From Candidatus Pacearchaeota archaeon UBA284 (GTDB taxonomy: Archaea; Nanobdellota; Nanobdellia; Pacearchaeales; UBA284), in contig DAKN01000010.1 in NCBI GenBank assembly GCA_002499185.1, positions 4,546 through 35,389 of the forward strand: a stretch of 30,844 nt of DNA. Direction: 5' to 3'. The notes below the pieces were generated by a model, which saw only the letters and a program-made list of their open reading frames with translations, was not told the DNA's origin and made no database searches. The translations under genes were made by a program, and so were the position numbers. Every line of letters begins with the position of its first letter. Position 1 is the stretch's first letter. Of this stretch, positions 10,651 to 30,844 are shown piece by piece.

Positions 10651-10710
10651 TGTTTTAAGAGAATCTATCCATTCTTCTTCAAGTTGTCTTATATCTTTAC
10701 GATATATTGT
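10651..10710. repeat. direct repeat copy B (~57 bp) upstream of AstE/AspA-like gene
   Basis: tgttttAagagaatCtatcCattcttcttcaagttgtCttatatctttAcgatatatt. A further inverted fragment of 14 nt (tatcgcaaagatat) lies at 10868-10881. Confidence 0.7.
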
Positions 10711-11013
10711 TTTAATTTTTAATAAATTAGAGGTTACGGTATTTTTTCTTGAAGTATTCTTATAAAGACGTTTAAAATTATTTTTACCATATTTTTTTAT
10801 TAAAAATTTAGTAAATGATCCTGATTGGAGATATATAATAGTCGGCTTTATATTCTTCTAATTGTTATTATCGCAAAGATATTTAATGAGATAAAGATTG
10901 TTATTTTTGTACCAAGAGATGTTTTATTTGTATTCCATGTTTTTAATATACCATAAAGATAAATATTAAAAAAATAATCTAGTTATTGGTTATTTATAAT
11001 TAAGGATTATCAG

Positions 11014-11709: not shown

Positions 11710-11711
11710 AG

Positions 11712-12737: not shown

Positions 12738-13236
12738 GTTTTTTAGATAGAGAGTAAGCGTATCTCATTGTATATTCCATTAAATCACTCCAATTATGGT
12801 GAATTTTTTGAATAGAGTTTAATTTCTGTAATTTTCTATCAGTGGCTTCGAATTTATTTTCTAATGGTCCAATTTTGAAATCTGTAGATAGAAATGCGGC
12901 AATTGCACTAATCTTAGGGTATCTTTTATTTTTTTTATTTTCTTTTAATTTTAGTAATTTAAAATAGCCAATAAATTTAGCTGTTATTAATTTTGCACCA
13001 GTTTCTTCTTTTGTTTCTCTTTTAGCAGTTTCTAATAATGTTTCACCATTTTCTATGTGACCAGTGGGTATATCCCATCCCCTCGGTACTTTAGTTAAGA
13101 GAATTTTTTCGTTTCTAAAAATAAACATTTTAATTGCCGTGAAATGAATGTTTTTTGGTATTAAGCTGGTAGGAATAAACTCAATAGAGCTTTTGGTTTC
13201 CATCCAGAAATCTTTTGGAAATTTATTGGAGTTCAT
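12712..13236 (-). CDS. NUDIX hydrolase
   Basis: 174 aa. Nudix box GHIENGETLLETAKRETKEETG. Confidence 0.8.
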   Translation of the reverse strand: MNSNKFPKDFWMETKSSIEFIPTSLIPKNIHFTAIKMFIFRNEKILLTKVPRGWDIPTGHIENGETLLETAKRETKEETGAKLITAKFIGYFKLLKLKENKKNKRYPKISAIAAFLSTDFKIGPLENKFEATDRKLQKLNSIQKIHHNWSDLMEYTMRYAYSLSKKHDKEKKDI

Positions 13237-14491: not shown

Positions 14492-14494
14492 TTA

Positions 14495-15772
14495 TTATTT
14501 TTTTGTTGAATTATTTAGCAATTCGTTAAAGTTATTGTTTACTTTTTTAAACGCATCAATATATTGGTTAATTATATTTTTTGATTTTTTCCAATCCGTA
14601 AAAGTTGGTAGAGAAAGTCCTCTATTTCCAAGATATTCAGCATTGGGAAAGTCTCCGATTCGATAAGTTTTCTCGTTTTTTCTATTTTTAAACATTTTAT
14701 TTTCTTGTAAAGTATATAGTGGTAATGTAGATAAAGAATCTGATTGGGGTATTTTAATTTCAACCCCCTCTGCTTTTAGGGCTTCAACGTATTTTTCTCT
14801 GGGAATATTGTGAAATTTTTCTGGATTATATAATGGTTTGAATCCATACCAAGCACCCATATCAATATTTTTAGAAATATAAGGAACTGTAATCTCTGGA
14901 AATTGTTTTAATTTTTTTAAAAAATAATTTAAACATTTTTTTCTAGATATTAGTCTTTTTTTGAGTGCACATAGAGAATAAATAGCTGTGATAGCATTAT
15001 ATGGTGACATTCTTAATTTTAAACCATAGCCAGTAAACCAAAATTGTTGATAGAAATCATTAATGACATCGTTTTTAGCTCTATCACGATAATGGCCTAA
15101 AAGAATAGCTCTATCATTATATTCACTAGAATTAGTTACCAGTATTCCTCCTTCTCCAGCAAAAACTATTTTATTCGCCTGAAGGGAGAAAATTGCAATA
15201 TCTCCAAAAGTTCCAACCAATTTACCTTTATACTTACTACCATGAGCATGCGAACAGTCTTCAATTACCTTTAATTTATATTTTTTAGCAATAGACATTA
15301 TTTTATCCATATCTGCAGGGTGACCCCATTGATGGACAACAGTAATAACCTTTGTTTTATTTGTAATATTTTTTTCAATTAGGTTTGGATCTATACACCA
15401 AGTTTTAATATCAACATCTATAAGAATAGGGTTAGCTTTTAATATAAATATAGGGCTGATAGCTGCGTGATAGGTAAAAGCCGGAGCTATAATCTCATCG
15501 TCTTCGTCGACTCCTAAGGCAAAATATGCAGCTAATAATGCGGAAGTTCCTGAATTAAAAGTAATAGCATATTTTACTTTATTTTTAAGAAATTTTTTAA
15601 ATTTTTGTTCTAGTTCTAATATTGGCCCAGAGCTTCCTTTAATTGATATGTCTTTATCTCTTTGTAGCCCGAGAACTTTTTTTTCTTTTTTGTCTGATTT
15701 TGGGGGCCATACAAAATGCGGCTGACTAATTTTTACCGCCATAGGGCCGCCATTTATTGCTAGTTTGTTCAT
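14495..15772 (-). CDS. DegT/DnrJ/EryC1/StrS-family PLP-dependent sugar aminotransferase
   Basis: 425 aa. DDEIIAPAFTYHAAISPI, IEDCSHAHGSKYKGKLVGTFGDIAIFSLQANKIVFAGEGGILVTN (the SLQANK lysine is the PLP site). Confidence 0.85.
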   Translation of the reverse strand: MNKLAINGGPMAVKISQPHFVWPPKSDKKEKKVLGLQRDKDISIKGSSGPILELEQKFKKFLKNKVKYAITFNSGTSALLAAYFALGVDEDDEIIAPAFTYHAAISPIFILKANPILIDVDIKTWCIDPNLIEKNITNKTKVITVVHQWGHPADMDKIMSIAKKYKLKVIEDCSHAHGSKYKGKLVGTFGDIAIFSLQANKIVFAGEGGILVTNSSEYNDRAILLGHYRDRAKNDVINDFYQQFWFTGYGLKLRMSPYNAITAIYSLCALKKRLISRKKCLNYFLKKLKQFPEITVPYISKNIDMGAWYGFKPLYNPEKFHNIPREKYVEALKAEGVEIKIPQSDSLSTLPLYTLQENKMFKNRKNEKTYRIGDFPNAEYLGNRGLSLPTFTDWKKSKNIINQYIDAFKKVNNNFNELLNNSTKK

Positions 15773-16713
15773 AGTGATATGCTATTTATGCCGTTTATTA
15801 TTACTTTTAATGTTTGCAAATCATCATCCATATTATAAGTTTTGTTAAGTATTTTTTCTATAGTTGATTTTAGCTGTAAGTAGTATAGTTCTTTTTCAGA
15901 AATATCTGTTTCATAAGATTTTTCAATGTCATTAATTCTCAAGACAAGTTTTTTTCTATTTAATAATAGCCTGCCATTTTTGTAATTAACTATAATTTCT
16001 TCTGATTTTGGCTCTATACAACTTACGTGAACTGTTCCATTTAATTTATTAATTATAATGGCTGCCGTGGCAGAGTGGTCTGTTTTGTAATCCCAAGGTC
16101 TTTTACCTCCAATTTCCCATTTTAATTTAATATGATCTATTGTTCCGATAAGCCATTGTAATACTGTTATTGTGTGCCATCCCATATTTATCCAACATCC
16201 CCCACCAGCGGCTTCAATGTCCCAATACCAACTATTTTTATTATCGTCTATTGTGAATGTATACGAAAAAAATAAAGGTGAACAAAGTTTATCAATTTCT
16301 TCTTTAGCTTTTAAAAATAAAGGATTATACTTTCTTTGTTGTAGTGTTGCAATAAATAAATTATGTTTTTTAGCAAGATTAATAATTTTTTTTCCATCTC
16401 GATACGTTAAGGCAAGGGGTTTTTCTTTAATGATATTTATCTTTCTATTTAAAGCTTCAATAGATATTTTTTCATGAAGATAGTTTGGAGTTGCAATAAT
16501 GACGATATCTAATTCTGTGGACAATAGTAATTCTTTATAATTTGTAAAAAAGGGCACACCCTTAATGGCGGCCCCAGCATTAGTATCGCAGATAGCGACT
16601 ATATTAACTATATTTTCTTTTTCTAATTCGAAAAGCGCCTCTAAGTGTTTTTTACCCTGGTTCCCTACTCCGATTAAGCCTATTCTCAATGGTTTATCAG
16701 TGGAATTTAACAT
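15769..16713 (-). CDS. Gfo/Idh/MocA-family oxidoreductase (first gene of sugar operon)
   Basis: 314 aa. RIGLIGVGNQGKKHLEAL, EKP motif IKEKPLALT. The -10 TATAAT (16720-16725) ends 6 nt before the ATG, so probably leaderless. Confidence 0.8.
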   Translation of the reverse strand: MLNSTDKPLRIGLIGVGNQGKKHLEALFELEKENIVNIVAICDTNAGAAIKGVPFFTNYKELLLSTELDIVIIATPNYLHEKISIEALNRKINIIKEKPLALTYRDGKKIINLAKKHNLFIATLQQRKYNPLFLKAKEEIDKLCSPLFFSYTFTIDDNKNSWYWDIEAAGGGCWINMGWHTITVLQWLIGTIDHIKLKWEIGGKRPWDYKTDHSATAAIIINKLNGTVHVSCIEPKSEEIIVNYKNGRLLLNRKKLVLRINDIEKSYETDISEKELYYLQLKSTIEKILNKTYNMDDDLQTLKVIINGINSISL

Positions 16714-16719
16714 GATGAT

Positions 16720-16748
16720 ATTATAATAATTTAAAAAAATTTGTCAAG
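16720..16748 (-). promoter_or_regulatory. sigma70-type promoter of the sugar operon (TTGACA-16-TATAAT), -10 abutting the ATG
   Basis: Minus-strand read TTGACAaatttttttaaattatTATAATatcatcATG. Confidence 0.5.
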
Positions 16749-16753
16749 CTATA

Positions 16754-18573: not shown

Positions 18574-20649
18574 TTAATTTAATTTACCTGCCCATGCTTC
18601 ATTGGATAGATTTTCTATTGCTTGAGCCATTACTTTATCTTCTTTATTTGTGCTTGTTTTTAATGATGTAATTACATTTTTAACAGCTGTTCGATTTAAT
18701 TTATCTCTAGTGAAACCCCTTAAATCTTTAACATCAATAGTTGCAGTAGGAAGATGCTGTTTTATTAAATTAGCATAACCATTTTTAATGTTTTCTATGT
18801 CTTTTGCTGTTCCTTTTTTTAATTTTTCTTGTATTATTTTTATATTAGGGCCAGCAATAGATGATAAAATTTCAGGATTTAGATATGCTGAGGAATTTAT
18901 TATTTTTCCTCTTTCAGCTGGCGACATTGCTCCCATAACTTCAGAAGAGCTTTTGTTGATTAATTTTTGAGCATAATCTGGTCTAGCATTTGCAATATCT
19001 TTTATTTTAACATTAAATGTTTCGGCCCAATTTTTATTGCTAGCCAAATATTCTAATTCAGGTTTATCTAATTCTCCTCTTTTATTTAAAGCGTTAAAAG
19101 CAGCGGCTTTATCAATATTATTTGCTCTTGTTTCTGTTCCTGAAGTAGTGATTTTTTTAAGCTTATCATTAGAGAGATTTTCGAGTCTTTTCTGTGCCTC
19201 TTCAACTTCGCCGCTTATCTTAGCGTCGTATTCTCCACGTCTTGTAAAGCCGATGTTTTCTTTTATTTCAGATATTCTTTTGGCTGCTTTTTCTCTTCCC
19301 TCGGCTCCTAATCCTCCCATTGCTGCTCCGGTTAATCCTCCCATTGCTGCTCCTCTTATTCCAGCATCAGAATATCCTTGACTGATACCAGAAAGTCCGC
19401 CAACTGCGGCACCAGCAACCGTTCTTTTCCCTCCTTCAACCATCCATTCTCCGCCTGCTACCGCAGTTTCTTTTGCTTTACTTATAGCCCTGCCTCCAGT
19501 TCTTGCCCAAGCACCTTTGGCGAGACCCTCAACAGTCGAACCGATTTGTCCTCCCGCAGAGATAGAGATAAAGAATCCAGCGATTAAAATAATGAAGGGA
19601 GTAAGACACTTAATGGCTGAATTAACTAAGCTACCAATAATAGAGGTAAGACTTGTTGGATCAATAGTAAAGGTTATCGATGGAATTAGCATATTTGCGA
19701 GATAGATAGACATTCCAGCTGGTATTCCGATTACACACCATTGCATAAAACTTTCCCACCAGTCATCCCAATAAAGAACGCTGGGAAATATTTTTTTAAT
19801 ATAGTTTGACTGAGGAAATACTTTTGTTGCAAAAGCTATGGGAGAAGCTATTACTAATAGCCATAGAATTATAGATCTACCAAGAAAAAGTAATGCATAA
19901 AGAATGTAAATAAAGAAACTAATAAGGGCAAACATTAAAAATGCAAGTGATACAGCGAAAGAATTTAATATACTTAGAGTTGATGTTCCTATTGCATTGA
20001 CAAATTCTTTTTCTGCGACAGCTGTTACGGTAGTATTTATTCCTCCAGAAACAAAAGACTTTGTTAAAATATTTGATCCATCTATAATAAATCCACAAAT
20101 AATAGGGGTAAAATTAATCAAAAGAGCAATAATTATAAAATTGATTAAAGTTTTTTTAGCTTTATTTTCTTCTCTTCCTAATATTATGTTAATAGCTATA
20201 ATAACTAATCCAATAACTAATGCTGCGTTGGCTACGTTTCTTACTACTCCCCATCCAGTCGCTACAACTTTATTATATGTTTCACTTGCTGGATCAAAGT
20301 CTGTTGGACTTAGCCATGTTGATGTTGAATCTATAACCGTAGACAATATTACTTGTCCAAGATTTATAATTGTTGAACCAGCCATAGTTATCAGAGATCT
20401 AGCTGCTGTTATTATGCTATTGGTAATAACAGCGGTGGGGTTGTCAAGAAGATTATTAGTTGCATCTAATCCTAATAATTTTGAAATTTCAAGTGCTCCG
20501 GCTAATGGCCAAGTAGTAGGATTAGAAAGTAATAATATTTGAAGAGGATCAATAATATCTTCAGCAAAAACATTTCCCATTGGCGAAAGAAGAGTTAAAA
20601 AAATAAAAAGAGAACAAGCTATAATTTTTAATTTTTTAAAATTAAACAT
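18574..20649 (-). CDS. VirB6/TrbL-like polytopic membrane protein with Gly/Ala-rich C-terminal tail
   Basis: 691 aa. Signal peptide MFNFKKLKIIACSLFIFLTLLSPMGNVFA. A ~100-aa extracytoplasmic segment, then at least 5 TM helices in residues ~135-370 with a conserved-Trp loop (YWDDWWESFMQW). Then a ~320-aa hydrophilic tail containing GGLSGISQGYSDAGIRGAAMGGLTGAAMGGLGAEG and a 24-bp tandem duplication at ~19311-19358. Confidence 0.5.
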   Translation of the reverse strand: MFNFKKLKIIACSLFIFLTLLSPMGNVFAEDIIDPLQILLLSNPTTWPLAGALEISKLLGLDATNNLLDNPTAVITNSIITAARSLITMAGSTIINLGQVILSTVIDSTSTWLSPTDFDPASETYNKVVATGWGVVRNVANAALVIGLVIIAINIILGREENKAKKTLINFIIIALLINFTPIICGFIIDGSNILTKSFVSGGINTTVTAVAEKEFVNAIGTSTLSILNSFAVSLAFLMFALISFFIYILYALLFLGRSIILWLLVIASPIAFATKVFPQSNYIKKIFPSVLYWDDWWESFMQWCVIGIPAGMSIYLANMLIPSITFTIDPTSLTSIIGSLVNSAIKCLTPFIILIAGFFISISAGGQIGSTVEGLAKGAWARTGGRAISKAKETAVAGGEWMVEGGKRTVAGAAVGGLSGISQGYSDAGIRGAAMGGLTGAAMGGLGAEGREKAAKRISEIKENIGFTRRGEYDAKISGEVEEAQKRLENLSNDKLKKITTSGTETRANNIDKAAAFNALNKRGELDKPELEYLASNKNWAETFNVKIKDIANARPDYAQKLINKSSSEVMGAMSPAERGKIINSSAYLNPEILSSIAGPNIKIIQEKLKKGTAKDIENIKNGYANLIKQHLPTATIDVKDLRGFTRDKLNRTAVKNVITSLKTSTNKEDKVMAQAIENLSNEAWAGKLN

Positions 20650-20704: not shown

Positions 20705-20739
20705 TAAAAAAACCGGGGATATTTTTAAATCGTCCCCGG
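20705..20739 (-). terminator. rho-independent terminator after small 2-TM gene copy 1
   Basis: Minus-strand read CCGGGGAcgatttaaaaataTCCCCGG followed by TTTTTTTATTT. The stop codon lies in the loop. Confidence 0.65.
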
Positions 20740-21027
20740 TCGTCGCGCATTCCCCATTGAGGGAGTGCGACGATAGTCGTATGCTCCTACCATTATTATC
20801 ACTACTCCAAAGATAATGATTATCATAGGAGTGGGCACTGAAGGAATTGCCGCTCTTGAAGTTCTTTGCTGTAAATCGTTTTCCAGTATTTTAGATGTTC
20901 TTTCAATGCCTGATGTGGTGGAAGCAGTAGATTTGTTGTCTTCAATCTGTGCAGTGTTCATGAATACGATACCGCCGATGACTGCGATTGCAATCCCGAT
21001 AATAATCAGAATGGTTGAGTTCTTCAT
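20725..21027 (-). CDS. small two-TM membrane protein, paralog copy 1 (true start MKNSTILI, not the TTG-initiated MRCLQ extension)
   Basis: ATG at 21027-21025 preceded by GAGGTG with a 7-nt spacer. Sequence MKNSTILIIIGIAIAVIGGIVFMNT, a polar linker, then a second TM IIIIFGVVIIMVGAY and an RR tail. The 5' ~130 nt are about 88 percent identical to 28758-28890. Confidence 0.6.
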   Translation of the reverse strand: MKNSTILIIIGIAIAVIGGIVFMNTAQIEDNKSTASTTSGIERTSKILENDLQQRTSRAAIPSVPTPMIIIIFGVVIIMVGAYDYRRTPSMGNARRPGTI

Positions 21028-21097
21028 TTGTAAACACCTCAATATGTAATTGTGATGAACTTTATAGTCTCTCCGAGGCTATTTAGGTTCTTTATAT

Positions 21098-21126
21098 ATT
21101 ATAATACCTATATTAAAATTTGTCAA
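21098..21126 (-). promoter_or_regulatory. consensus sigma70 promoter (TTGACA-17-TATAAT) for copy 1
   Basis: Minus-strand read cTTGACAaattttaatataggtatTATAATatat. Confidence 0.6.
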
Positions 21127-21128
21127 GA

Positions 21129-21157
21129 TTGTATGCTTCAAGCCAATAAAGTATAAT
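21129..21157 (+). promoter_or_regulatory. promoter TTGTAT-17-TATAAT for the pilin-fusion operon, -10 ends 8 nt before ATG
   Basis: TTGTAT (21129-21134), a 17-nt spacer, TATAAT (21152-21157), ATG at 21166. The -35 lies 2 bp from the -35 of the divergent copy-1 promoter. Confidence 0.5.
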
Positions 21158-21165
21158 TTAATTGT

Positions 21166-21501
21166 ATGTTTAATATTAAATTTACTCCCGAAACTTTTTT
21201 CATGCTTCCCTTCGCACTCGGACTTGATTTGATAGGAATTATTTTGGTTTGTTTCGGTTTAGATGATTTCGGAATAACAGATATCATCGGAATTGCATTT
21301 ATTAATACTTGGTTATTATTAAGAGGAAAAAAAGTTGTGCATCAACAAGGTAAAAAAGGAGCGATAAGTAGCATTAAAAAAGCTTTTACCGGCAAAACAA
21401 GTAAATTCTTTGCTGCACCGTTTCTAGAGTTGATTCCCTATGTAGGTTGTCTCCCCTTTTGGACAATATCGGTAATATTAAATTTAGACGAAGAACAATA
21501 A
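21166..21501 (+). CDS. small polytopic membrane protein (3 predicted TM), first gene of operon
   Basis: 111 aa. Hydrophobic segments FFMLPFALGLDLIGIILVCFGL, IIGIAFINTWLLL, FFAAPFLELIPYVGCLPFWTISVILNL, with a Lys-rich loop. Stops 2 nt before the next gene. Confidence 0.5.
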   Translation: MFNIKFTPETFFMLPFALGLDLIGIILVCFGLDDFGITDIIGIAFINTWLLLRGKKVVHQQGKKGAISSIKKAFTGKTSKFFAAPFLELIPYVGCLPFWTISVILNLDEEQ

Positions 21502-21502
21502 T

Positions 21503-24193
21503 ATGGCATTTTCAGAAGCTGTAATCTATCTCTTCAATTTTTCTCTGGGCATGGCCGCTGTTTTAGCTTTCATTGTTATCGTTGCCGCCGGAATAAAAAT
21601 GGTTGAATCGCGTGGTAATCCTTCGGAAACACAAGATGCCAAACAAAAAATCATTAATTCTCTTCTCGGTTTAACAATTCTCCTAACTTCATATATTCTT
21701 CTAACAACAATTAATCCCGATTTGGTAAAAATCGAGAATATTTCTTTGGGCACGACCGGAATAACTATCCCTATAATTACCCCAGGTGATAATCCGGAAG
21801 ATGCCAAGAATTATCAGTTTGAAGAAATACCGATCGGAACACTAACCGAAGCAATCTTAATTGGTACTTCATCAACCAAGAATAAGGTCCCCTGTTACGA
21901 ATACGAGCATGAAGCTTACGATGATGACGGCCAACTAATCATCGCTAATACGGTTGATAAAAACAAAGACGGAAAGATAACCGAAAAAGATATTATTCTT
22001 AACAAGGACATGTTCTATTGCATCAAACTTTTAGATGATGCGATTAAGAAAAAAATAGAAGTTCATTTGAATACTTTGGTTGCTGGACAAAAACAGTTGG
22101 ATGCTTTAATGAAAACTAACTGTACCTGCAAGAGAGCGTATTACAGCTATCTTCCTCCCAATAAAGAAGAATACAAAATTGAAGGAACAGACTGTTCCGA
22201 TACCGGTTGCTACAGAGGCACTACTTACTGTCAGTGTTGTGGAGGCGCTAAGACCGGCTGTTCAAGACTAGACCCGTACAACACTTCCTGCAGTTCTTCG
22301 TCTGCGAATCCCTGTGAAATTGTCGGATACAATAACGGTAAAGAAGTTAAACAGTATCAATACGATACTTGTGATAATAGATTAGCGATAGAATGCAAAA
22401 AACAGGAAATAAAACAATTGATGGACGGTACCAAGCCGGATCAAATTTGCTACGAAGAAGTCAACGGTGCTCCCCCATTAATAGAAAAGGAGCAACCGTT
22501 TAATCTTTTCACCATTAAGTTAGGAATCGAAAGATTGCAAGAATTCAAGGATTATTATGACGATGAAATCAAGGCGCTGGAAGAAGCAGAATTGAAAACA
22601 AAGGAATACGGAGAAAAGCTAACCTTAGCCGAAGTATATAATAATGTTCAAACAAAAGACGATGTTACTGTCGGTGTGAAAGAATTTGAAACCGAAGTCT
22701 ATTACAATATTTCCAGGTATTGCCGAACCGCTAACTGCACAAAATCAGGATATGATCCTAAGCTTGGATATGTTTGTCCGGAAGAAGACAATGAATACGA
22801 GATGAGCCTTAAAAAGAGGGTTTGCAGGATGGATGTAACAAAAGAAGATGTTGAATCTGGTGATGTTTTTGCCGCAAGCTGTGAAAAAGCAACCGGACTT
22901 TTCGAGCTTGATGCATGCAAGGAATTTTATTCATATGCCGGAGATCCAGCAACCTTCTATTACAGTGAAAAATACAATTCTGATTATAAGGGAGAAAATC
23001 AGGTAATCGACAGTAGTGATAATAAATGTAACCTTGAAACTCAGATTATTGAAAATGAAATGTACGGAGGAGTCATCCGTATCGGAGAAACGGTTGATTA
23101 TACTCAAGCCTGGGGCAAAGAAGTTTCAAGAAGGATAGAAAAGCTTAAAGAAGAAGTTCAGGGAATGTTTAATACGGGTATGGCCATATCTAATTTTCCC
23201 GACAGCTGCAGCGCCGGAAATTGTACAAACAGCAGTCCCGACAAATTGAATATTTGTACTCATCCGAAATGTGATTGCGAGGGCGATTGCTGTTGCGCTT
23301 CTGTTGAAGGAACATCTTGCCAGTCCTGCGAACCGGCTGAAACTGTTTGCGAGGATCCGGAAGAAGAATTAATGGACCAAATGGGACATGCGAGCACTTG
23401 TAACGAAAAAGAAACAAAGGCGTACGGAGGCTGCAGTACTTGTTGTGAAGGTATTTGTCCGGAAGTTCCCCTGCCCGAAGAAGACTACTGGACCTGCCCT
23501 TACAGAAACCTCTGTAATTTAATGAAGAATCTATACCAAAGAAGGTCCATTCAAAGGTCTTGCCTTGAAGAGACAGAAAACACCAATGAAGAGAAATCAA
23601 GAGAGATTATGGAGAGTAAGGTAGGATACGTTCAGAAGATGGAAATGAGAGAAGTGATATTATTCGAAATGGCCCAGGTTAAAGAGATAAAGGACGATGT
23701 AGAATATGAATATGTTTCGACCACAAACTTAATTAGTCTTGTCTGTCCCAGTTATTTGCTTTGGGATCTTACTCCTCTTACCTGTAACGTGAGCTTGAAT
23801 AAGAAGCTTAACATTGAAAAGAGGTTTGATTTGTTTGATATGCTTAAAGATTCAAGAGAAAGACTGAACGGATGTGTTAAAGGATATACTATTCCCTACA
23901 AGCAGACCGCCGATAACGTCAGAGTTTTGAGCTGTTACGAGGCTTCTAATACTTCTAATACCGGACTGGTTGTTATTCCCGAATTCCCCTTCCTTAAATT
24001 AGGAGACCCAGTAGACGAAGATATTGCTGAAGGAATCAAATATATTAATTGTTATCCTTACAATAGCGATAATTTAACCGACCAAGAAAAGGAAGTCTGT
24101 TTCTATAACATCAATCGTACGGGAACCGCAGAGAATCCGGGCTGTTTAACAATTACTAAAAATTATATGGATAATTATTATTGCTGCCAATAA
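21503..24193 (+). CDS. VirB2/TrbC-pilin-like N-terminal helical hairpin fused to ~800-aa cysteine-rich extracellular domain
   Basis: 896 aa. N-terminus AVLAFIVIVAAGIKMVESRGNPSETQDAKQKIINSLLGLTILLTSYILLTTINPDL is shared with the next two genes. About 50 Cys, including CQCCGG, KCDCEGDCCCAS, CSTCCEGICPE. An EF-hand-like loop DKNKDGKITEKD. Confidence 0.6.
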   Translation: MAFSEAVIYLFNFSLGMAAVLAFIVIVAAGIKMVESRGNPSETQDAKQKIINSLLGLTILLTSYILLTTINPDLVKIENISLGTTGITIPIITPGDNPEDAKNYQFEEIPIGTLTEAILIGTSSTKNKVPCYEYEHEAYDDDGQLIIANTVDKNKDGKITEKDIILNKDMFYCIKLLDDAIKKKIEVHLNTLVAGQKQLDALMKTNCTCKRAYYSYLPPNKEEYKIEGTDCSDTGCYRGTTYCQCCGGAKTGCSRLDPYNTSCSSSSANPCEIVGYNNGKEVKQYQYDTCDNRLAIECKKQEIKQLMDGTKPDQICYEEVNGAPPLIEKEQPFNLFTIKLGIERLQEFKDYYDDEIKALEEAELKTKEYGEKLTLAEVYNNVQTKDDVTVGVKEFETEVYYNISRYCRTANCTKSGYDPKLGYVCPEEDNEYEMSLKKRVCRMDVTKEDVESGDVFAASCEKATGLFELDACKEFYSYAGDPATFYYSEKYNSDYKGENQVIDSSDNKCNLETQIIENEMYGGVIRIGETVDYTQAWGKEVSRRIEKLKEEVQGMFNTGMAISNFPDSCSAGNCTNSSPDKLNICTHPKCDCEGDCCCASVEGTSCQSCEPAETVCEDPEEELMDQMGHASTCNEKETKAYGGCSTCCEGICPEVPLPEEDYWTCPYRNLCNLMKNLYQRRSIQRSCLEETENTNEEKSREIMESKVGYVQKMEMREVILFEMAQVKEIKDDVEYEYVSTTNLISLVCPSYLLWDLTPLTCNVSLNKKLNIEKRFDLFDMLKDSRERLNGCVKGYTIPYKQTADNVRVLSCYEASNTSNTGLVVIPEFPFLKLGDPVDEDIAEGIKYINCYPYNSDNLTDQEKEVCFYNINRTGTAENPGCLTITKNYMDNYYCCQ

Positions 24194-24194
24194 T

Positions 24195-25517
24195 ATGAAT
24201 ATTAAAACAATAATCACTACATTATTTTTATTTCTTATTGCTTTCCCTGCTTTGGCGGCGATGCAATATCCGGAAATCGGCGGGATAACAATTTCCGAAT
24301 CAACCACGGCTGCCCAATACATTGTTTATTTCTTTAATTTAGCGATTGCTCTAGGTGCTTTTGCCGCCGTTATCATGATGGTTATGGCCGGCATCGAATG
24401 GGTTACCGCTGCCGGAAATCCGAGCAAGATAGAATCATCTAAAGGAAAGATTGCCAATACCCTTTTCGGGGTAGCCGTCCTCGTTGGCTGTTATTTGATT
24501 CTTAATACTATTAATGACCAACTGCTTACCATTAAAATAGATGATTTGAAATGTGAACACGGTATAACAGTCTCAGTCAAACAGGCTTCCGATGATAAAG
24601 TAAAGCAGAAATGTATCGATGCGAGTCAGACAAATATCGAGGACACGATTATAAGCACTTTGAGCTGGAATTTTCCCGAAGATTATTTACTAAGAGTTTA
24701 TCTCTATTCTGAACCGGACTATAAAGGAACGATAACTCAAATTGATTGCAAGAATGGTCCTTGTGATGGGAGTATTTCCGGAGCAAAATCACTTTATTTT
24801 TTACTGAACAACGCCGGAATTTATTTGTATGACGACAACAGTTATACCCCGAGGGTAAAAAGTTATCCCCTTTTTACTTCGACCAGCATATCTGATTTAT
24901 CTAAAACAAATAGCTTTGATAATTTTACCAGGTCAATAGAAATAATTAATCCCGATCAAGACAAACAGCAGCTTCAATATTCCGCTATTGTTTTTAAAGA
25001 TCAAAACTATCAAGGAAGATGTGCTTTTGTCGGTCAGTCTGTTCCTGATATGGATACTGGATATAGCGGATATTACACTGATGCTATAGGAGATGATGAA
25101 ATTTCTTCAATTATTGTGGCAAAATCTAACTTAAACCAGGAAGCAATCAGCCAAAAGAGAGGAGAAATCATATTGTACACCAAGGTTAATTGTGGAAAAT
25201 CAGATACCGACCCAACTAAGCAAATCAAGGCTTGTCATATACCGATAACCAGTGTTGCCAGTGGTCAGGTGGATATTTCTGAAAGTTGTTCTAATTTTGA
25301 GTCTGGCGATGAAGTAATGTCTTTTGAAATCACTGGTGCAGCCGGATTAATTCTAAGTACTTCCAAGAAACAAGCGGGAGACGAAAAAACATACTGTATG
25401 TATTTCAATAAAGAATCTTTAGGAGGAGGAACCTGTTTGTCTTCAATATTGGATACCCATATCTTTACGGTCGGAGGAACGACCCCGCAATCATATATAA
25501 TCGTACCGGAAAACTAA
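24195..25517 (+). CDS. secreted/anchored paralog: signal peptide + VirB2/TrbC-like module + beta/gamma-crystallin-like (Greek-key) ectodomain
   Basis: 440 aa. Signal peptide ...FPALA|AMQYPEIGG. Module LGAFAAVIMMVMAGIEWVTAAGNPSKIESSKGKIANTLFGVAVLVGCYLILNTIN. Ectodomain motifs VYLYSEPDYKGTITQI, SAIVFKDQNYQGRCAFVG ... DDEISSIIVA. Confidence 0.6.
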   Translation: MNIKTIITTLFLFLIAFPALAAMQYPEIGGITISESTTAAQYIVYFFNLAIALGAFAAVIMMVMAGIEWVTAAGNPSKIESSKGKIANTLFGVAVLVGCYLILNTINDQLLTIKIDDLKCEHGITVSVKQASDDKVKQKCIDASQTNIEDTIISTLSWNFPEDYLLRVYLYSEPDYKGTITQIDCKNGPCDGSISGAKSLYFLLNNAGIYLYDDNSYTPRVKSYPLFTSTSISDLSKTNSFDNFTRSIEIINPDQDKQQLQYSAIVFKDQNYQGRCAFVGQSVPDMDTGYSGYYTDAIGDDEISSIIVAKSNLNQEAISQKRGEIILYTKVNCGKSDTDPTKQIKACHIPITSVASGQVDISESCSNFESGDEVMSFEITGAAGLILSTSKKQAGDEKTYCMYFNKESLGGGTCLSSILDTHIFTVGGTTPQSYIIVPEN

Positions 25518-25518
25518 A

Positions 25519-26625
25519 ATGAAAAATATTAAAACAATAATTTGTCTTTCTTTATTTGGAATATTATTCATCTCCCCTGTTTTGGCAGCAATACAATATC
25601 CGGAAATCGGTGGCGTTAATATTAATGAAGAAGGAACTTCAGCGGCCACCTACGTTGTTTATCTTTTTAATCTATCTATTGCGGCTGGAGCTTTTATTGC
25701 CGGAGCGGTTTTGTTTGCAGCCGGAATTGATTACGTTTCTGCTCGTGGAGAGCCGGCCAAGCTTGATAGCGCAAAAAACAAAATAAAGAATGCCTTTTTG
25801 GGATTAACGATCCTTCTCGCTGCTTTCATGATTTTAAACATTATCAATCCTCAATTAACGAGCATTAAAATCAGCCAATTGGAAAAAACACCGGAAAAGG
25901 AAATAGTCATTCCCGAGGGTTCTGGTATTTATTTATATGATTTAACTAATTACGCTTCCAGTGAAAATGAAGAGCCGGTAAGGGTTACTAAAACCATGGG
26001 GGGCTTTTTAGAAAGCAATTTTAGTAATAAAGCTGAATCAATTAAATTCAATAATCCGACTGAAGAATTCAGCTTCGGCGCCGTTCTTTACGCTGCCAAA
26101 GAAGACAGTACTGAAGGTTCTGGCTCTGATTTAAGAGGAAATTGTTCGTATACACTCAGTAATGTTCCTGACTTAGACGTTGCGGTTAACGACAAGGAAA
26201 ACTATCCTCCGATTGGCCGGGATAAGCTGGCTTCAATGCTTGTTTTTAAAACTGATGGTGGTTCGGGAAGTATCAAGATTTATAATACTATTAATTGCAA
26301 AGACAGGACCGATGAATACGGGGTAACCTGTAAAAAGAAGAAATACGATGATTGCGAGATTACTGGTGGCAGCGGATTCAAAAATCTTAAAGAAGCTTGT
26401 CCTGATTTCAAGGGAGACATCATGTCGATAGAAGCCGGAGACAGTTTGGGTATATTATTCAAAGCCACAGGTGCTCAGGAAGCTGGAAGATGTCACTACA
26501 TTGAAACCAATGATACTGGCTGTGTTAATGTGGTTAAATACAGCTATGTTTTTAATATCAACGACAAGAAATACGAATCTAATTTTACCCCCAAATCTTT
26601 TGTAATCTTTTCTTTAGTAAAGTAA
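25519..26625 (+). CDS. secreted/anchored paralog: signal peptide + VirB2/TrbC-like module + divergent ectodomain
   Basis: 368 aa. Signal peptide ...SPVLA|AIQYPEIGG. Module AGAFIAGAVLFAAGIDYVSARGEPAKLDSAKNKIKNAFLGLTILLAAFMILNIINPQL. Shares SGIYLYD..NY with the previous gene. Its 3' end overlaps the convergent ksgA remnant by 41 nt. Confidence 0.6.
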   Translation: MKNIKTIICLSLFGILFISPVLAAIQYPEIGGVNINEEGTSAATYVVYLFNLSIAAGAFIAGAVLFAAGIDYVSARGEPAKLDSAKNKIKNAFLGLTILLAAFMILNIINPQLTSIKISQLEKTPEKEIVIPEGSGIYLYDLTNYASSENEEPVRVTKTMGGFLESNFSNKAESIKFNNPTEEFSFGAVLYAAKEDSTEGSGSDLRGNCSYTLSNVPDLDVAVNDKENYPPIGRDKLASMLVFKTDGGSGSIKIYNTINCKDRTDEYGVTCKKKKYDDCEITGGSGFKNLKEACPDFKGDIMSIEAGDSLGILFKATGAQEAGRCHYIETNDTGCVNVVKYSYVFNINDKKYESNFTPKSFVIFSLVK

Positions 26626-27418
26626 ACAGAGATTCCCATTGGGACAAAGACAATACTTCTGCTCTCTCCCCTGGCTTGAGATTATTATCTTCAAGCCATT
26701 TTTTTATTATCTCTTTATCTATTTTTAATTGGCTGTATAAGTTTCCGATTAACTGTTTTCTCGGATGAGAAAACCCGGCTTTAATTAATTTAAAGAATTC
26801 ATCGTTTTTATCAACTCCCTTCGGAGTGATGCGGATAAAAACACTGTCTATTTTAGGAGAAGGTAAAAAACAGCCTTTGGGAACGGTGAACAATATCTTG
26901 GGGTTGGCATAATACTGGACGGCAATAGACAAGATAGACATATCGCCCGGCTTGGCACAAATACGTCTCCCCTACCTCTTTTTGAATCATTAAAAAGATA
27001 TCTTCGGGCTGGTTTTTGATTTCTAATAAGTTCCTGATTAAAACCGAAGTTAAGATAATAAGGAATATTGGCGACAATTTTGTATTTTTTAATCTTTAAC
27101 ATTCAGTTTGTCATTATTAAACAGCTTAAGGATGTCTTCATTGATAATCTCCACGTTTTTAATGTTTTCCTCTTTGAGTTTTTGATTTAAAGCTATAACC
27201 ATTTCCTGGTCCTTTTCTATGCAAACAACAGCCTTGGCAACTTTTGCCATTTCTAGGGTGATCGCTCCTAATCCCGGTCCTATTTCCAAGACCGTGTCAT
27301 TGGGAGAAAGGTTAATCGAAGCCATAATCTTCCTAATCTGGTTCAGGTCTTTTAAGAGGTTTTGACCTAATCCTTTTTTGAGTCTAACAGTATTCATAAG
27401 TGCATTATACCTGACCAA
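26585..27418 (-). pseudogene. rsmA: 16S rRNA (adenine1518/1519-N6)-dimethyltransferase RsmA/KsgA disrupted by three frameshifts
   Basis: Frame 1 27418-27089: GQNLLKD...VLEIGPGLGAITLEM...VVCIEKD (SAM motif). Frame 2: KYKIVANIPYY. Frame 3: LIRNLLE...FLMIQKEVGETY. Frame 1 again 26941-26585: SILSIAVQYYANPKILFTVPKGCFLPSPKIDSVFIRI. The conserved order is preserved, but the frame changes 3 times within 26940-27100. Confidence 0.6.
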
Positions 27419-27460
27419 ATTGATTAATAAAAGGGTGTTGATTTCATGTGGAAAGATTTC

Positions 27461-27488
27461 TTGACATATGGGTGGATAGGTCTAAAAT
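27461..27488 (+). promoter_or_regulatory. promoter TTGACA-16-TAAAAT for the M23 peptidase gene
   Basis: TTGACA (27461-27466), spacer tatgggtggataggtc, TAAAAT (27483-27488). Confidence 0.5.
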
Positions 27489-27535
27489 ATATGGTATCCA
27501 GATAGATTGTCTGGAATTATGAATTATTAACTTTT

Positions 27536-28654
27536 GTGGGATTTTTAATAGAAACCCTGCAACTCTGGATTATTCTTATTCAAAAAAAAATTAAGAAAAC
27601 TATCGGCAGAATCGGTAAAAAAAGGCTCTTTTTGGCCTTTTTCGTCCTTTTTTGCGTCTGGGGTAATGTTTTCCTTAATCAGGATATAAACACCTCTAAA
27701 ACGAGCGTTTCTAAGCTTCAGAATAGCTTCTTGAGTCTTGAATCAGCCTTCCAACCGATTACCAACAATCTAATCTTTGAACAGGGAAAAATCCTATCAG
27801 CTTTGCCCTCTCCCCTGTTTGTTTCATCAGAGACCTTGGGGTCTTTGTTTGATGAAGAGACAGCCAGCAAAGATATTATTAAACACATCGTGGAAAAAGG
27901 AGAAACCTTGTCTTCAATCGCTGAGTTGTACAATATTTCAATTGAAACCCTTCTCTTGGCTAACGAATTGGATACCACCAAAATCCAACCCGGCCAAGAG
28001 CTTTTAATTTTACCGGTTAACGGCATTATTCACATGGTGGAAAAAGGAGAAACTATTGCCGCCATTGCCAAGACATATAGTGCTGACAAAGAAGAGATTA
28101 TCAGCTATAACAGTCTATCTTCTTCTGGAGAAGTATATATCGGAGATGTTTTGATTATTCCTAACGGCAAGATGCCCAAACAGTCTACCCCGACAACCAA
28201 TACCACAACTCAAAGCTATGCCCAGGTTGTTTTACCGAATTCTTATTTAATTGTTCCGACAGTAGGAACGATTACTCAGGGAGCTCATTATTCATACAGT
28301 TCCAGCGGAAAGGCTTATTATACAGCAGTAGATATTTCTAATGCGATTGGAACGCCGGTAGTGGCGGCTGCAGGAGGACAGATACAGATTGCCAAGAATA
28401 AATGGCCTTACGGAAACTATATTACTATTCTTCACCCGAATGGAGTGGTAACTCTTTATGCCCATCTAAGTTTTATTGCTAGAGGAATAGAATCAGGAGT
28501 GACTGTTTCTCAGGGACAAGTTATCGGATATATGGGTAATACCGGCCGAACCGTCAGAGGAGTGGGAGGAACCGGATCTCATTTACACTTTGAAACCAGA
28601 GGTGCAGCTAATCCGCTAACCGCTTACGGACGAGGCAGCAAGATTTCTTACTAA
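27536..28654 (+). CDS. LysM-LysM-M23 family peptidoglycan endopeptidase
   Basis: 372 aa. The start is uncertain: the ORF begins at GTG with no SD, and the N-terminal signal anchor is KKRLFLAFFVLFCVWGNVF. Two LysM repeats (HIVEKGETLSSIAELYNISIETLLLAN, HMVEKGETIAAIAKTYSADKEEIISYN). M23 domain YTAVDI...GTPVVAAAGG...ILHPNGVVTLYAHLSF...GYMGNTGR...GSHLHFE. Confidence 0.8.
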   Translation: MGFLIETLQLWIILIQKKIKKTIGRIGKKRLFLAFFVLFCVWGNVFLNQDINTSKTSVSKLQNSFLSLESAFQPITNNLIFEQGKILSALPSPLFVSSETLGSLFDEETASKDIIKHIVEKGETLSSIAELYNISIETLLLANELDTTKIQPGQELLILPVNGIIHMVEKGETIAAIAKTYSADKEEIISYNSLSSSGEVYIGDVLIIPNGKMPKQSTPTTNTTTQSYAQVVLPNSYLIVPTVGTITQGAHYSYSSSGKAYYTAVDISNAIGTPVVAAAGGQIQIAKNKWPYGNYITILHPNGVVTLYAHLSFIARGIESGVTVSQGQVIGYMGNTGRTVRGVGGTGSHLHFETRGAANPLTAYGRGSKISY

Positions 28655-28662
28655 TTAATTAA

Positions 28663-28686
28663 GCCGAACAAGAGTTCGGTTTTTTG
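28663..28686 (+). terminator. rho-independent terminator after M23 peptidase gene
   Basis: CCGAAC-aaga-GTTCGG followed by TTTTTTG. Confidence 0.7.
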
Positions 28687-28700
28687 ATATAAGCATTGTA

Positions 28701-28729
28701 TTGACATAATAATTAATATATATTATAAT
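28701..28729 (+). promoter_or_regulatory. perfect consensus sigma70 promoter TTGACA-17-TATAAT for copy 2
   Basis: TTGACA (28701-28706), 17-nt spacer, TATAAT (28724-28729). About a 58-nt leader with GAGGTG 7 nt before the ATG. Confidence 0.65.
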
Positions 28730-28787
28730 AAGAATCAATAATCTTAAAAGGTTATCAAGCTCATTACAATTATTGAGGTGTTTAAAA

Positions 28788-29075
28788 ATGAAGAACTCAA
28801 CCATTCTGATTGTTGCCGGGATCGTAATCATGGTCATCGGCGGTATCGTATTTATGAATACGTTTGCGGAAACGCAAAAGAAAACTATTAATGCTGATCA
28901 TCCTCTAAATAAATTAATAGAAAAACAAAAGCAGATGATGAAGATTGATGAGCCTAAAAATAATCCTTTCGTTTTTCCTCTCATAATAATTATGTTTGGA
29001 GTAGGATTAATTGGAGTTGGATTCTTCAGTTCTCGTCGTGCGTCCTCAACCGAACAAGAAAAATCACCGAGATAA
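28788..29075 (+). CDS. small two-TM membrane protein, paralog copy 2 (true start MKNSTILI)
   Basis: 95 aa. MKNSTILIVAGIVIMVIGGIVFMNT, a polar linker, then a second TM LIIIMFGVGLIGVGFF and an RR tail. The TTG-initiated MRCLK extension in the track was rejected. Confidence 0.6.
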   Translation: MKNSTILIVAGIVIMVIGGIVFMNTFAETQKKTINADHPLNKLIEKQKQMMKIDEPKNNPFVFPLIIIMFGVGLIGVGFFSSRRASSTEQEKSPR

Positions 29076-29090
29076 CAATATCTCGGTTTT
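29067..29090 (+). terminator. rho-independent terminator after copy 2
   Basis: CCGAGATA-acaa-TATCTCGG followed by TTTT. The stop codon lies in the hairpin. Confidence 0.6.
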
Positions 29091-29102
29091 CATATCTCTG
29101 TA

Positions 29103-29136
29103 ATAAAAAAGAAAGGGTTATTCCCCTTCTTTTTTG
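29103..29136. terminator. bidirectional terminator hairpin between convergent genes
   Basis: AAGGG-ttattc-CCCTT, flanked by aaaaaagaaa upstream and cttttttg downstream. It overlaps the stop of the DksA/TraR gene. Confidence 0.45.
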
Positions 29137-29513
29137 CAGTTACATTCGTTGTTTTTGCAGTTGCAAGTATTACAGGTTTTAGCTTCGGGTAAGGCAATCA
29201 ATCTTTCTTCTGGTATTTCGCATTCGCAGCCTGGGCATCCGCAGTCGCATTTGCCATATGTCCCCTGCTCTATCTTCTCTAAGGCCAGGTTCACATCTCT
29301 TAGACTTTCTTCTAAAGAATGTTCAACCGGTAAAAGATTTTCATATTCCTCTACCTCATCAACTTTATCTTCCGGAGTGTCGGTAAGTTGAGGGAATTCT
29401 GTTTGCCAATTATCTTCACTGGTTTTCTTGGCAAAAGTCTTTAATTGTTCTTCGATGCTTGCTTTCTTTTTCTCTAAATCTTCTTTTCTTTGAGCGATAA
29501 ATTCTGGTGTCAT
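29118..29513 (-). CDS. DksA/TraR-family C4-type zinc-finger protein with extra Cys-rich tail
   Basis: 131 aa. N-terminal coiled coil, then LEKIEQGTYGKCDCGCPGCECEIPEERLIALPEAKTCNTC (DksA/TraR C4 signature), followed by the additional tail NCKNNECNCKKEGE. Confidence 0.65.
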   Translation of the reverse strand: MTPEFIAQRKEDLEKKKASIEEQLKTFAKKTSEDNWQTEFPQLTDTPEDKVDEVEEYENLLPVEHSLEESLRDVNLALEKIEQGTYGKCDCGCPGCECEIPEERLIALPEAKTCNTCNCKNNECNCKKEGE

Positions 29514-29622
29514 ATTATATTTAATAATTTAAGAATGGCTGCAACTACCACGAAAAATATTATTGCTATTACCAGCCTCACTAATATTTTAGAAGTCGGG
29601 GTTTGTTTCTTGGCCATGTTTA

Positions 29623-30844
29623 TTATTTTATCTTCTGTTCAATGCTTATTAACTCGTCCTTGATTTGTCTAATCTGGGCTGAAACTTCCTGGTACTTTTC
29701 TTTAATGATTTTTCTGGTTGTTTCAAAGTCCCTTACCTTATCCTCTATTTCCCAGCGATCTTTCTCTAGGGCTCTTCTTTTTTCTTCGTTAGTTCTTCTT
29801 CTTAATTCGATATCTCTTAAAATAACCTCATCGGTTGTTTCGCCTTGTCTTCTTTCGAGAATCTTGATCTCGTCTTCGGTGGCTTTTTCCTTTAAGGCAA
29901 TATCGGCCAGCATTTTGTCTGACTTGTCTCTCTGCTTGGTATTCTCAAACATTTCTTTTTTAATATCTTCAACCGACTGATTTAATGGTTTCAATCTTTC
30001 TTCCAAATCTTTTTTTGTTCTTCCGAGAACAATTCTGTTTTTGTCTCTCTTTAATACTTCTAGCTGTTGAAGAGTGTCTTTTTCTTTTGCCATTACTTTT
30101 TCTGCATTCAAATCGCACTCCCTTATCTGAAGTCTTAATGATTTGATTTCATCTTCTTTTTCGTACTTTTCTTTTTCAATATTATTTCTTTCGTCTTCTA
30201 CTCTCCACCTTTCTTTTTCGACAGCTCTTTTTTCTTCCGGTGTCTTGGCCAGACCTTCTTTTTCTTCCAGGTCTTTCTTTATCTCATCGGCTCTTAACTT
30301 TTTTTCAAGAACCAATTCCAATTTTTTTTTAATATTTTCTATTTCTTCTTCAATCTCTTTTTTTCTTTGTTCGAAAGGAGCCTTTTCTTCATTTACATCC
30401 TTTAAAGCTTCTTCTAATTCAAGAGTTTGTTCATCAATTCTGGCTAATTTTTCTTCATTTTCATCAATCGCCACTAACTCTTCTTCTTTTTGTTTCGCTT
30501 CTTCTAGGCCCAACTCTTCGGCACTGGGAATTCTTTCTGCTTCTTCTAATCCCAATTCTTTTGCGCTGGGTATTTTTTCCGGTATTTCCAATTCAAGCTC
30601 TTTCTCAATTGGAGTAGGTTCTTCTTCAATAGGTAAAGTCTCGGGAATTTGTTCTTCCAATGGTTTTTCCGGTTCAGGTTCTGGCTCTGGTTCAGGTTCT
30701 GGAGGATTCATAAAGGCGACCGGAGCTTCTTCGGTTGGAGCAACCGGTCCTTTCTCTTCAATCACCTGTTTTACATTATCCTCGCTTTTGTTTGTTGAGA
30801 GAGCTAGTTCGTAAGCAAAATCCTCGGCTTTTTTAGTTTCTTCT
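29623..30844 (-). CDS. E/K-rich coiled-coil protein with (PE)n tract; 5' end beyond window
   Basis: The track ORF starts at GTG 30765, but the frame stays open upstream to the window edge (…EETKKAEDFAYELALSTNKSEDNVKQVIEEKGPV…). Contains PEPEPEPEPEPE, repeated EELGLEEA units, and two EEKRxxEKxRWxxED…QIRxxxxE modules. Confidence 0.5.
   Translation of the reverse strand, partial: EETKKAEDFAYELALSTNKSEDNVKQVIEEKGPVAPTEEAPVAFMNPPEPEPEPEPEPEKPLEEQIPETLPIEEEPTPIEKELELEIPEKIPSAKELGLEEAERIPSAEELGLEEAKQKEEELVAIDENEEKLARIDEQTLELEEALKDVNEEKAPFEQRKKEIEEEIENIKKKLELVLEKKLRADEIKKDLEEKEGLAKTPEEKRAVEKERWRVEDERNNIEKEKYEKEDEIKSLRLQIRECDLNAEKVMAKEKDTLQQLEVLKRDKNRIVLGRTKKDLEERLKPLNQSVEDIKKEMFENTKQRDKSDKMLADIALKEKATEDEIKILERRQGETTDEVILRDIELRRRTNEEKRRALEKDRWEIEDKVRDFETTRKIIKEKYQEVSAQIRQIKDELISIEQKIK

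Follow-up and report, generated by a model that had tools for sequence, protein, structure and literature searches.

A 30,844-nucleotide (nt) stretch of contig DAKN01000010.1 (assembly GCA_002499185.1, positions 4,546 to 35,389; hereafter the window, meaning this stretch at its full length), deposited under the name Candidatus Pacearchaeota archaeon UBA284, carries two paralogous genes for small proteins with two transmembrane (TM) helices that point outward from a segment of pilin-like and peptidoglycan hydrolase genes. We consider it likely that these genes belong to a recombining cassette family, in which the right copy is derived and the loops between the two helices have been moved between loci and strains by gene conversion or allelic replacement (that is, not by inversion of the intervening segment). 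The window is a chromosomal stretch with a GC content of about 0.33, and its nearest database records are metagenome-assembled genomes (MAGs) of the Minisyncoccales/Paceibacterota group of Patescibacteria.

The evidence that carries this reading is the distribution of loop types over the two loci in related genomes. Members of the family are laid out as a near-invariant N-terminal TM helix (TM1), a hypervariable hydrophilic loop of 40–55 amino acids (aa), a second TM helix (TM2) and a basic tail. The loops fall into types that are unrelated to each other (others exist besides A, B, D, E and F), and the same types recur at opposite loci (L numbers denote related contigs): type A is on the left in the window and on the right in L001/L002, type A' on the left in L005 and on the right in L006, type B on the left in L088, L102 and L094 and on the right in the window and L005, type D on the left in L008, L010 and L101 and on the right in L008 (R2), type E on the left in L007 and on the right in L008 (R3) and L091, and type F on the left in L090 and on the right in L007, L008 and L090. 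The flanks behave differently. The promoter and 5' untranslated region (−100 to −41) of left copies is, whatever their loop type, 82–97% identical to that of the window left copy (compared in L005, L007, L008, L088, L090 and L094), that of right copies is 80–90% identical to that of the window right copy, and the tail and terminator (the downstream 60 nt) cluster by locus. Loop types would be free of the locus, while promoters and terminators are bound to it, because recombination is anchored in conserved 5' and 3' segments: we suggest that homologous recombination, anchored in the 5' leader/TM1 segment and in the 3' TM2/YDARR segment, shuttles loop cassettes between loci and strains, and that it may do so as gene conversion or allelic replacement and not as an invertible switch.

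The right copy of L001 combines a right-type promoter and terminator with a left-type leader (including an ACAT insertion) and an A-type body, and the exchange tract can therefore be placed from about −30 to the Arg-Arg codons. When the two copies of the window and the two of L001 are compared as a quartet, 20 of 20 informative sites between −100 and −41 group by locus and, in the body, the left copy of the window groups with the right copy of L001; four synonymous sites in codons 5–14 are specific to the genome and common to both of its paralogs, which is suggestive of intragenomic homogenisation. The TM1 variants GIAIA and GIIIM are uncoupled from loop type. These comparisons show the 5' inverted repeat of the window (described below) as the apparent 5' edge, or anchor, of an exchangeable unit that would run from about −37 to the Arg-Arg codons past TM2. 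A reciprocal swap between the window and L001 (that is, a double inversion) was considered and set aside, as the eight 'cross' sites in +61 to +110 are about what chance gives once the A=A grouping is fixed.

An earlier note on this DNA, made from the sequence of the window, had proposed gene conversion from the likeness of the two 5' ends; the proposal holds, with stronger evidence from other genomes than from the window pair itself. The repeat formed by the two genes is the top inverted repeat of the window in a repeat search (91 nt, 88% complementary, with a spacing of 7,726 nt; the runner-up has 34 nt at 71%). Its arms comprise 17 nt of leader and 74 coding nt without a gap, or about 115 nt if a 4-nt indel is allowed, and contain perfect runs of 26 and 20 nt. 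A 39-nt core (TTGAGGTGTTTANAAATGAAGAACTCAACCATTCTGATT), covering the ribosome-binding site (RBS), the start codon and the first eight codons, has two exact copies in the window and no more; the expectation from 100 shuffles is 0. The left (100 aa) and right (95 aa) proteins share 43% identity (BLASTP E=6e-18), and each has two strongly hydrophobic stretches. The note was thus right about inverted, outward-facing paralogs with conserved 5' ends, about a perfect TTGACA-17-TATAAT promoter ahead of each copy (both match 12/12 by scan) and about a terminator behind each (found by scan for the right copy and read from the sequence for the left); both genes are probably highly expressed. Its estimate of about 88% identity was also accurate, but its length of about 130 nt was too generous, its figure of about 100 conserved coding nt exceeds the point near coding nt 75 at which nucleotide conservation ends, and the 3' halves, described as alike at the protein level only, include a TM2 block with a stretch of 20/22 identical nt and 67% identity over 72 nt. 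The note had asked whether the 5' identity exceeds synonymous expectation: synonymous divergence (dS) is indeed lower at the 5' end (0.32 over 25 codons) than in the TM2 block (0.80), but the proportion of synonymous differences (pS 0.26) does not amount to strong depletion, and the counts are small. We do not use the ratio of nonsynonymous to synonymous divergence of the window pair as proof of conversion, the counts being too small for it.

Comparison with genomes that have an empty right site shows the direction of the duplication. L097 aligns to window positions 8574–28692 and 29105–30843, so that block 28693–29104 is precisely missing, and it is otherwise 100% identical from about 8.8 to 21.2 kb, 82–100% identical across the module and 98.5% identical overall over the aligned 20 kb. 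In L097, L009, L010, L011, L014 and L093, the terminator of the M23 peptidase gene is directly joined to that of a gene for a DksA/TraR-like zinc-finger protein (ZnF131). Because of this empty site, the right copy is seen to be a derived, inverted 412-bp duplicate of the whole cassette, inserted between two terminators; outgroups lack it as well. The left gene is ancestral and lies, in most related species, between the VirB6/TrbL-like gene and the pilin-like operon; most species of the group have it, in versions that differ greatly in sequence. No long direct repeats or insertion-sequence features were found at the 412-bp junctions (only TA(A) microhomology), and a mobile element was rejected as the source of the cassette.

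The right locus holds one copy in the window, L001, L005 and L007, two in L090 and L102, and three in L008/L092. In these tandem arrays the upstream cassette stops right after ..YDARR and is directly followed by the RBS of the next cassette, a junction that delimits the exchangeable unit in the same way as the comparison with L001. In the arrays at L008 11265–12191, L090 1982–2574 and L102 1307–1860, the C-terminal tail of the upstream protein is encoded by the RBS and leader of the next gene (..YDARR-SLGVSK*, ..HRSLGG*), so that the array reads as a compact operon. As a separate observation, the M23–ZnF131 gap (the equivalent of 28655–29117) is empty, holds one to three small cassettes or holds an unrelated gene for 114–116 aa (L012, L013, L015), and in L093 and L094 an AAA ATPase or Fic gene separates ksgA from M23; the M23 region is an apparent hot spot of insertion.

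Table 1. Coordinates of the two small genes, their signals and the genes around them (window positions; TM, transmembrane; ORF, open reading frame; T4SS, type IV secretion system)
Feature	Position	Strand	Basis or remark
VirB6/TrbL-like polytopic membrane protein, 691 aa (assignment with caveat, see text)	18574..20649	-	directly downstream of left small gene
Left-type terminator hairpin CCGGGGA-13 nt-TCCCCGG (7-bp GC stem) with T7, across stop codon	~20706..20739	-	read directly from sequence
Small two-TM gene, left copy, loop type A, 100 aa	20725..21027	-	ORF, GAGGTG RBS 7 nt before ATG; paralog and ortholog alignments
Inverted-repeat arm 1, leader/RBS and TM1 codons	20954..21044		91 nt, 88%
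Left-type promoter TTGACA-17-TATAAT	21098..21126	-	12/12 consensus match
111-aa membrane protein (p111), first gene of bracketed module	21166..21501	+	no family match; position kept in all relatives
Three proteins (896, 440 and 368 aa) with N-terminal T4SS_pilin (VirB2-like) domain	21503..26625	+	PF18895, E 3.5e-5 to 9e-5, just under cut-off
ksgA/rsmA, 16S rRNA dimethylase, housekeeping, broken in window	26585..27418	-	RrnaAD matches on two fragments
LysM-LysM-M23 peptidoglycan hydrolase	27536..28654	+	profile scan
Right cassette (promoter, small gene and terminator), 412 bp	28693..29104	+	insertion relative to empty-site genomes
Right-type promoter TTGACA-17-TATAAT	28701..28729	+	12/12 consensus match
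Inverted-repeat arm 2	28771..28861		repeat search and shuffle test
Small two-TM gene, right copy, loop type B, 95 aa	28788..29075	+	ORF; identical protein P0004 in L005
Right-type terminator	29066..29087	+	terminator scan

The earlier note also raised the possibility that the inverted repeats (about 130 bp by its estimate) mediate inversion of the intervening segment and thereby swap promoters and C-terminal halves, as in some pilin or shufflon phase-variation systems. The corresponding rival to our reading is a flip of 21.03–28.79 kb between repeats of about 91–130 bp that exchanges promoters or gene halves, in the manner of a shufflon or the Mycoplasma vsa genes. The repeat is real and has long perfect runs, RecA-type recombination between such repeats is physically possible, and some contigs end at a small gene or within one (L001 begins within the left copy), a possible sign of heterogeneity. 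However, the strain comparison that the note had called for never recovered the alternative orientation: 0 of 15 related contigs that span both flanks (L005, L007–L014, L016, L090, L093, L094, L097 and L102) and 0 of about 15 further contigs with a single junction are inverted, all having the orientation of the window. In line with what the note had said, no recombinase domain was found in Pfam scans of all substantial open reading frames (ORFs) of the 30.8-kb window, the sole recombinase-like match being a sub-threshold HTH_7 that lies beneath a LysM domain. There is also no single expression site with promoterless cassettes: each gene owns a consensus promoter and its own terminator, and a flip would therefore switch nothing on or off. 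Nor could inversion yield the observed body swaps, because a crossover in the 5' repeat leaves each 3' body beside its own flank, and the segment that would turn contains the housekeeping gene ksgA. We therefore regard such an inversion as very improbable. Invertible multigene switches such as the R64 shufflon with Rci and the Mycoplasma pulmonis vsa locus with HvsR resemble the present pair in having inverted repeats at the start of the coding sequences of paralogous genes for surface proteins; unlike them, the present loci come without a recombinase, an alternative orientation in related contigs or promoterless cassettes, and their inversion would leave expression unchanged.

Two further explanations would dispense with exchange altogether, and we hold either to be improbable. 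According to one, the two genes simply diverged after a single duplication, and their 5' identity reflects purifying selection on the translation start and the signal/TM1 region. This agrees with an N-terminus that is near-invariant throughout the family, including in single-copy species, with AT-biased codon usage and with a 5' pS of the window pair that is not 0, yet it leaves unexplained the presence of the same loop type at opposite loci inside locus-specific flanks, the left-type leader in the right copy of L001, the uncoupling of TM1 variants from loops and the tandem arrays with cassette-precise junctions. According to the other, to which we likewise give little credence, co-assembled strains were stitched together at conserved 5' and TM2 k-mers, producing false mosaics and false locus swaps. 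The window is indeed 100% identical to L098 from 8.4 kb to about 21100 (and about 85% beyond) and 100% identical to L005 from about 21140 to about 29850 apart from a patch in ksgA (and 76–90% across the left small gene and the VirB6-like gene); both contigs come from one European Nucleotide Archive (ENA) sample, two versions of the left region are present in MAG GCA_049299875.1, and many short contigs terminate at the small genes (L004, L006, L091). The mosaics break where the left small gene has its conserved 5' segment, and the breakpoints would represent real recombination or, for some contigs, path-switching by the assembler. A locus swap, however, requires two precise path switches, and L097 and L099, from other samples, carry the left block of the window with a near-identical module. 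Because the same arrangements recur in independent assemblies (L001/L002, L008/L092, L007/L087/L089, L088/L103) across independent pipelines (NCBI, JGI, ENA and Logan), it can be argued that most of the mosaicism is real.

Several points nevertheless weigh against a family of exchanged cassettes with an exposed loop as we propose it. The four genome-specific synonymous sites are few (p~0.02 by a crude Poisson estimate); the 5' pS of the window pair (0.26) is not near zero, which makes for modest homogenisation in that pair, and part of its 5' identity comes from purifying selection on the RBS, start region and TM1. All comparators are metagenome assemblies, in which some of the mosaics could stem from mixed strains or from chimeric paths through shared k-mers, and the window itself equals L098 on the left plus L005 on the right. 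Finally, the orientation of the loop is read only from the positive-inside rule and a low-confidence model (pLDDT, the predicted local distance difference test score, of 61).

Gene-conversion cassette families such as Neisseria pilE/pilS and Borrelia vlsE, with conserved ends and variable middles, are the closest in layout to the recombining cassettes described here. In both cases conserved 5' (leader and signal/TM) and 3' segments surround a hypervariable middle, which here is common to both loci, and middles are exchanged between loci by homologous recombination to give mosaic alleles. The present system differs in that both loci are complete, promoter-bearing and terminated, without a silent donor archive (all copies are full ORFs, single copies having a promoter and tandem copies being operonic with an intact RBS), in that there are one to four copies per genome with much of the exchange apparently occurring between strains, and in that the product is a two-TM protein of about 100 aa and not a pilin or lipoprotein.

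The small genes form an undescribed, very small family restricted to a lineage within the Minisyncoccales/Paceibacterota group of Patescibacteria. A word-seeded search of 5.8 billion proteins gave 4 matches when started from a single sequence and 9 when started from the family alignment, and an exhaustive HMMER search of 1.84 billion representatives at 50% identity gave 31 clusters at E<=1e-3, in all of which the N-terminus MKNSTILIV..GG is near-invariant and the loops are unrelated. No curated family in Pfam, NCBIfam or PHROG was consistently matched, the scattered sub-threshold matches being driven by TM segments and differing between members. The left small gene is missing from protein databases because gene callers annotate instead an antisense ORF of 77 aa that overlaps it (window 20816–21049, plus strand; annotated in L097–L099). 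The left protein has hydrophobic windows at residues 1–28 and 58–86, and its AlphaFold2 model has helices at 2–32, 42–56 and 66–87, with a confidence too low (pLDDT 61) for a fold search. We infer, tentatively, that the loop may face outward and be under diversifying or frequency-dependent selection.

Other identities for the genes were tried and rejected. A VirB2/TrbC-type pilin of type IV secretion systems (T4SSs; PF04956/PF18895) is disfavoured, as the proteins match no such profile, though their neighbours match PF18895, and the loop is 40–55 aa long and not short. For a class II holin, one copy has only a weak PHROG holin match (E=0.0018, no stretch passing) and the other matches a spanin family; moreover, the ancestral locus adjoins the VirB6-like gene and not M23, in a context that is chromosomal and conserved. 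A leader RNA element found no support in Rfam, either at gathering score across the window or at E<=1 around the left copy; leader folding is unremarkable (z of −0.8 and −0.1), and a UUGAG/CUCAA stem around the start codon is absent from other family members. No reverse-transcriptase domain, as expected of a diversity-generating retroelement, surfaced in the scans of the window, which were not a formal test for such an element, and the loops, instead of being A-mutated, cannot be aligned.

The left small gene lies 75 nt upstream of the gene for the 691-aa membrane protein, which can be called VirB6/TrbL-like with a caveat: the assignment comes from a precomputed PF19590 (TrbL_3) match on the identical protein P0010 and on most homologs, and from a Foldseek match of its AlphaFold2 model (pLDDT 76) to TrwI/VirB6 of R388 (8rt9_F; probability 0.96–0.99, TM-target ~0.5 (0.49), weak E-values), and hmmscan and PDB sequence searches run here gave no such match. 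Three of its segments are hypervariable (residues 31–125, 206–240 and 321–350, in this order below), and the conserved TM blocks at 126–205 and 241–320 are 74–98% identical among close relatives. Between genomes with the same or a similar left small-protein type, identity in the three segments is 86, 71 and 80% (A against A'), 73, 60 and 52% (D against D) and 76, 60 and 80% (B against B), compared with 22–45, 13–34 and 13–57% between different types; L101 supplies a further D/D pair in both small-protein type and VirB6-like segments. Over 12 genomes, small-protein loops and VirB6-like variable segments are correlated (Mantel r=0.78, p=2e-4; r=0.79 when partial on p111), and the five closest pairs for the loop are exactly the five closest for the variable segments. 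The first segment, which is acidic, follows a signal peptide and the second an in-to-out helix, and both are plausibly extracytoplasmic. The conserved blocks also travel with small-protein type. The coupling of small protein and variable segments is established as an association of haplotypes, and the left gene and these segments may form one co-inherited block. Since the genes are neighbours, linkage serves as the null explanation of the co-variation and is the simplest, with a cognate interaction as a possible addition.

A separate observation concerns the hydrophilic C-terminal domain of the VirB6-like protein (18574–19530; P0022, P0026, P0030, P0033), which has at least three unrelated forms. 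The N-terminal type varies among the proteins that carry them, and D-type N-termini, for example, are joined to two different C-termini; modular shuffling would therefore reach beyond the small gene.

Given these pairings, it is conceivable, although we would not favour it, that the small protein acts as an exclusion- or immunity-like specificity factor, whose outward loop recognises the variable segments of its cognate VirB6-like protein. Exclusion pairs of T4SSs, such as YddJ–ConG of ICEBs1, Eex–TraG of SXT/R391 and TraS–TraG of F, resemble the present pair in that a small membrane-associated protein has a VirB6-family gene as its neighbour and both partners are polymorphic; their matched allelic types would have a counterpart in the correlation described above. 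In ICEBs1, exclusion specificity maps to a loop of ConG (VirB6) and to YddJ (bioRxiv 10.1101/2021.01.25.428195), and the T4SS of Patescibacteria derives from the monoderm MPF-FATA class (PMC12102498). By extension, the small and VirB6-like proteins might, rather speculatively, serve self/non-self recognition for a chromosomal T4SS, with the left locus holding the cognate allele and the right locus an array of orphan alleles fed by recombination from co-occurring strains. In keeping with this, the close correspondence of loop and segment pairs described above persists in the partial Mantel test, each of the right-locus types A, A', B, D, E and F has a left counterpart beside its own VirB6 type elsewhere, and types co-occur in a single sample (JGI 3300037067, in which the left blocks are of type A in L099 and of type B in L102 and L094). 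Such a role would also account for a second locus that gathers alleles whose cognate VirB6 types are present in co-resident strains. Against it, the matched allelic specificity, strong as the correlation is, is confounded by physical linkage, adjacency alone predicting it; the conserved VirB6-like blocks follow type as well; and Pfam, NCBIfam and PHROG searches gave no sequence similarity to any exclusion protein. The present case differs further from known pairs in that its T4SS-like cluster is chromosomal, lacks a relaxase and belongs to a host-dependent bacterium, and in its second locus with orphan or tandem alleles.

The segment bracketed by the two genes is not a coherent mobile module. 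Its gene order, namely VirB6-like (−), left small gene (−), p111 and three pilin-like genes (+), ksgA (−), M23 (+), right small gene where present (+) and ZnF131 (−), is found co-oriented in every related contig, and the pilin-domain proteins also match an NCBIfam family of pilin-like conjugal transfer proteins. Chromosomal T4SS genes and variable VirB2-like arrays have already been described for Patescibacteria, the PF18895 arrays being tandem, highly divergent paralogs with an average identity of 25% within arrays (PMC12102498). The divergent tandem paralogs of the window are comparable and occur in the same gene neighbourhood as described there (PMC12102498); the small genes, however, are not PF18895 or PF04956, have a loop of 40–55 aa where pilins have a short hairpin loop, and flank the pilin-like genes without being members of the array. 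The middle pilin-fusion protein (440 aa, 24195–25517) has 71–74% identity between close strains, compared with 88–96% for its neighbours.

Other features of the window lie apart from the small genes. The ksgA/rsmA gene has three 1-nt insertions near 26967, 27052 and 27093 (within a span of about 125 nt), absent from 8/8 relatives checked, by which the frame is lost for about 42 codons and then regained; the cause is either an error in the sequence or recent pseudogene formation in a gene that is normally universal. The 5' end of ksgA (27206–27418) contains a patch of about 210 nt with only 77–87% identity to L005, the rest of the surrounding 8.7 kb being 100% identical; the patch looks like a short recombination tract. 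At window ~10600–16750, a sugar-modification island (two GFO/IDH/MocA oxidoreductases, a DegT aminotransferase, an ATP-grasp protein, NUDIX and HAD) is missing in L088/L103, L102 and L093, where the phenylalanyl-tRNA synthetase (PheRS) side meets the VirB6 side more directly; it looks like a strain-variable glycosylation island. At 29623–30765 (minus strand) lies a gene with tandem repeats of 42 nt and 30 nt (for example, 30497–30580), whose Glu/Lys-rich, coiled-coil product contains a PEPEPEPE stretch; it diverges from L005 past about 29850 and is only 80–92% identical to L097.

In summary, we describe a compact, hitherto unannotated specificity-like module: a protein of about 100 aa whose loop comes in about 30 unrelated types within a narrow clade, which is co-inherited with matching variable segments of a VirB6-like protein and which has a second site where alleles are gained, lost and stacked. 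That gene callers overlook the left small gene and annotate an antisense ORF in related contigs serves as a warning for annotation of this group. Contact with other cells is a necessity for Patescibacteria. In the one system tested, the chromosomal T4SS genes proved essential for epibiotic growth (summarised in PMC12102498). If linkage is all that ties the small protein to the VirB6-like protein, the two loci would still be a clean natural case in which inverted, fully expressed paralogs exchange cassettes; should the pairing be functional, they would provide a direct handle on strain-level recognition in Patescibacteria.

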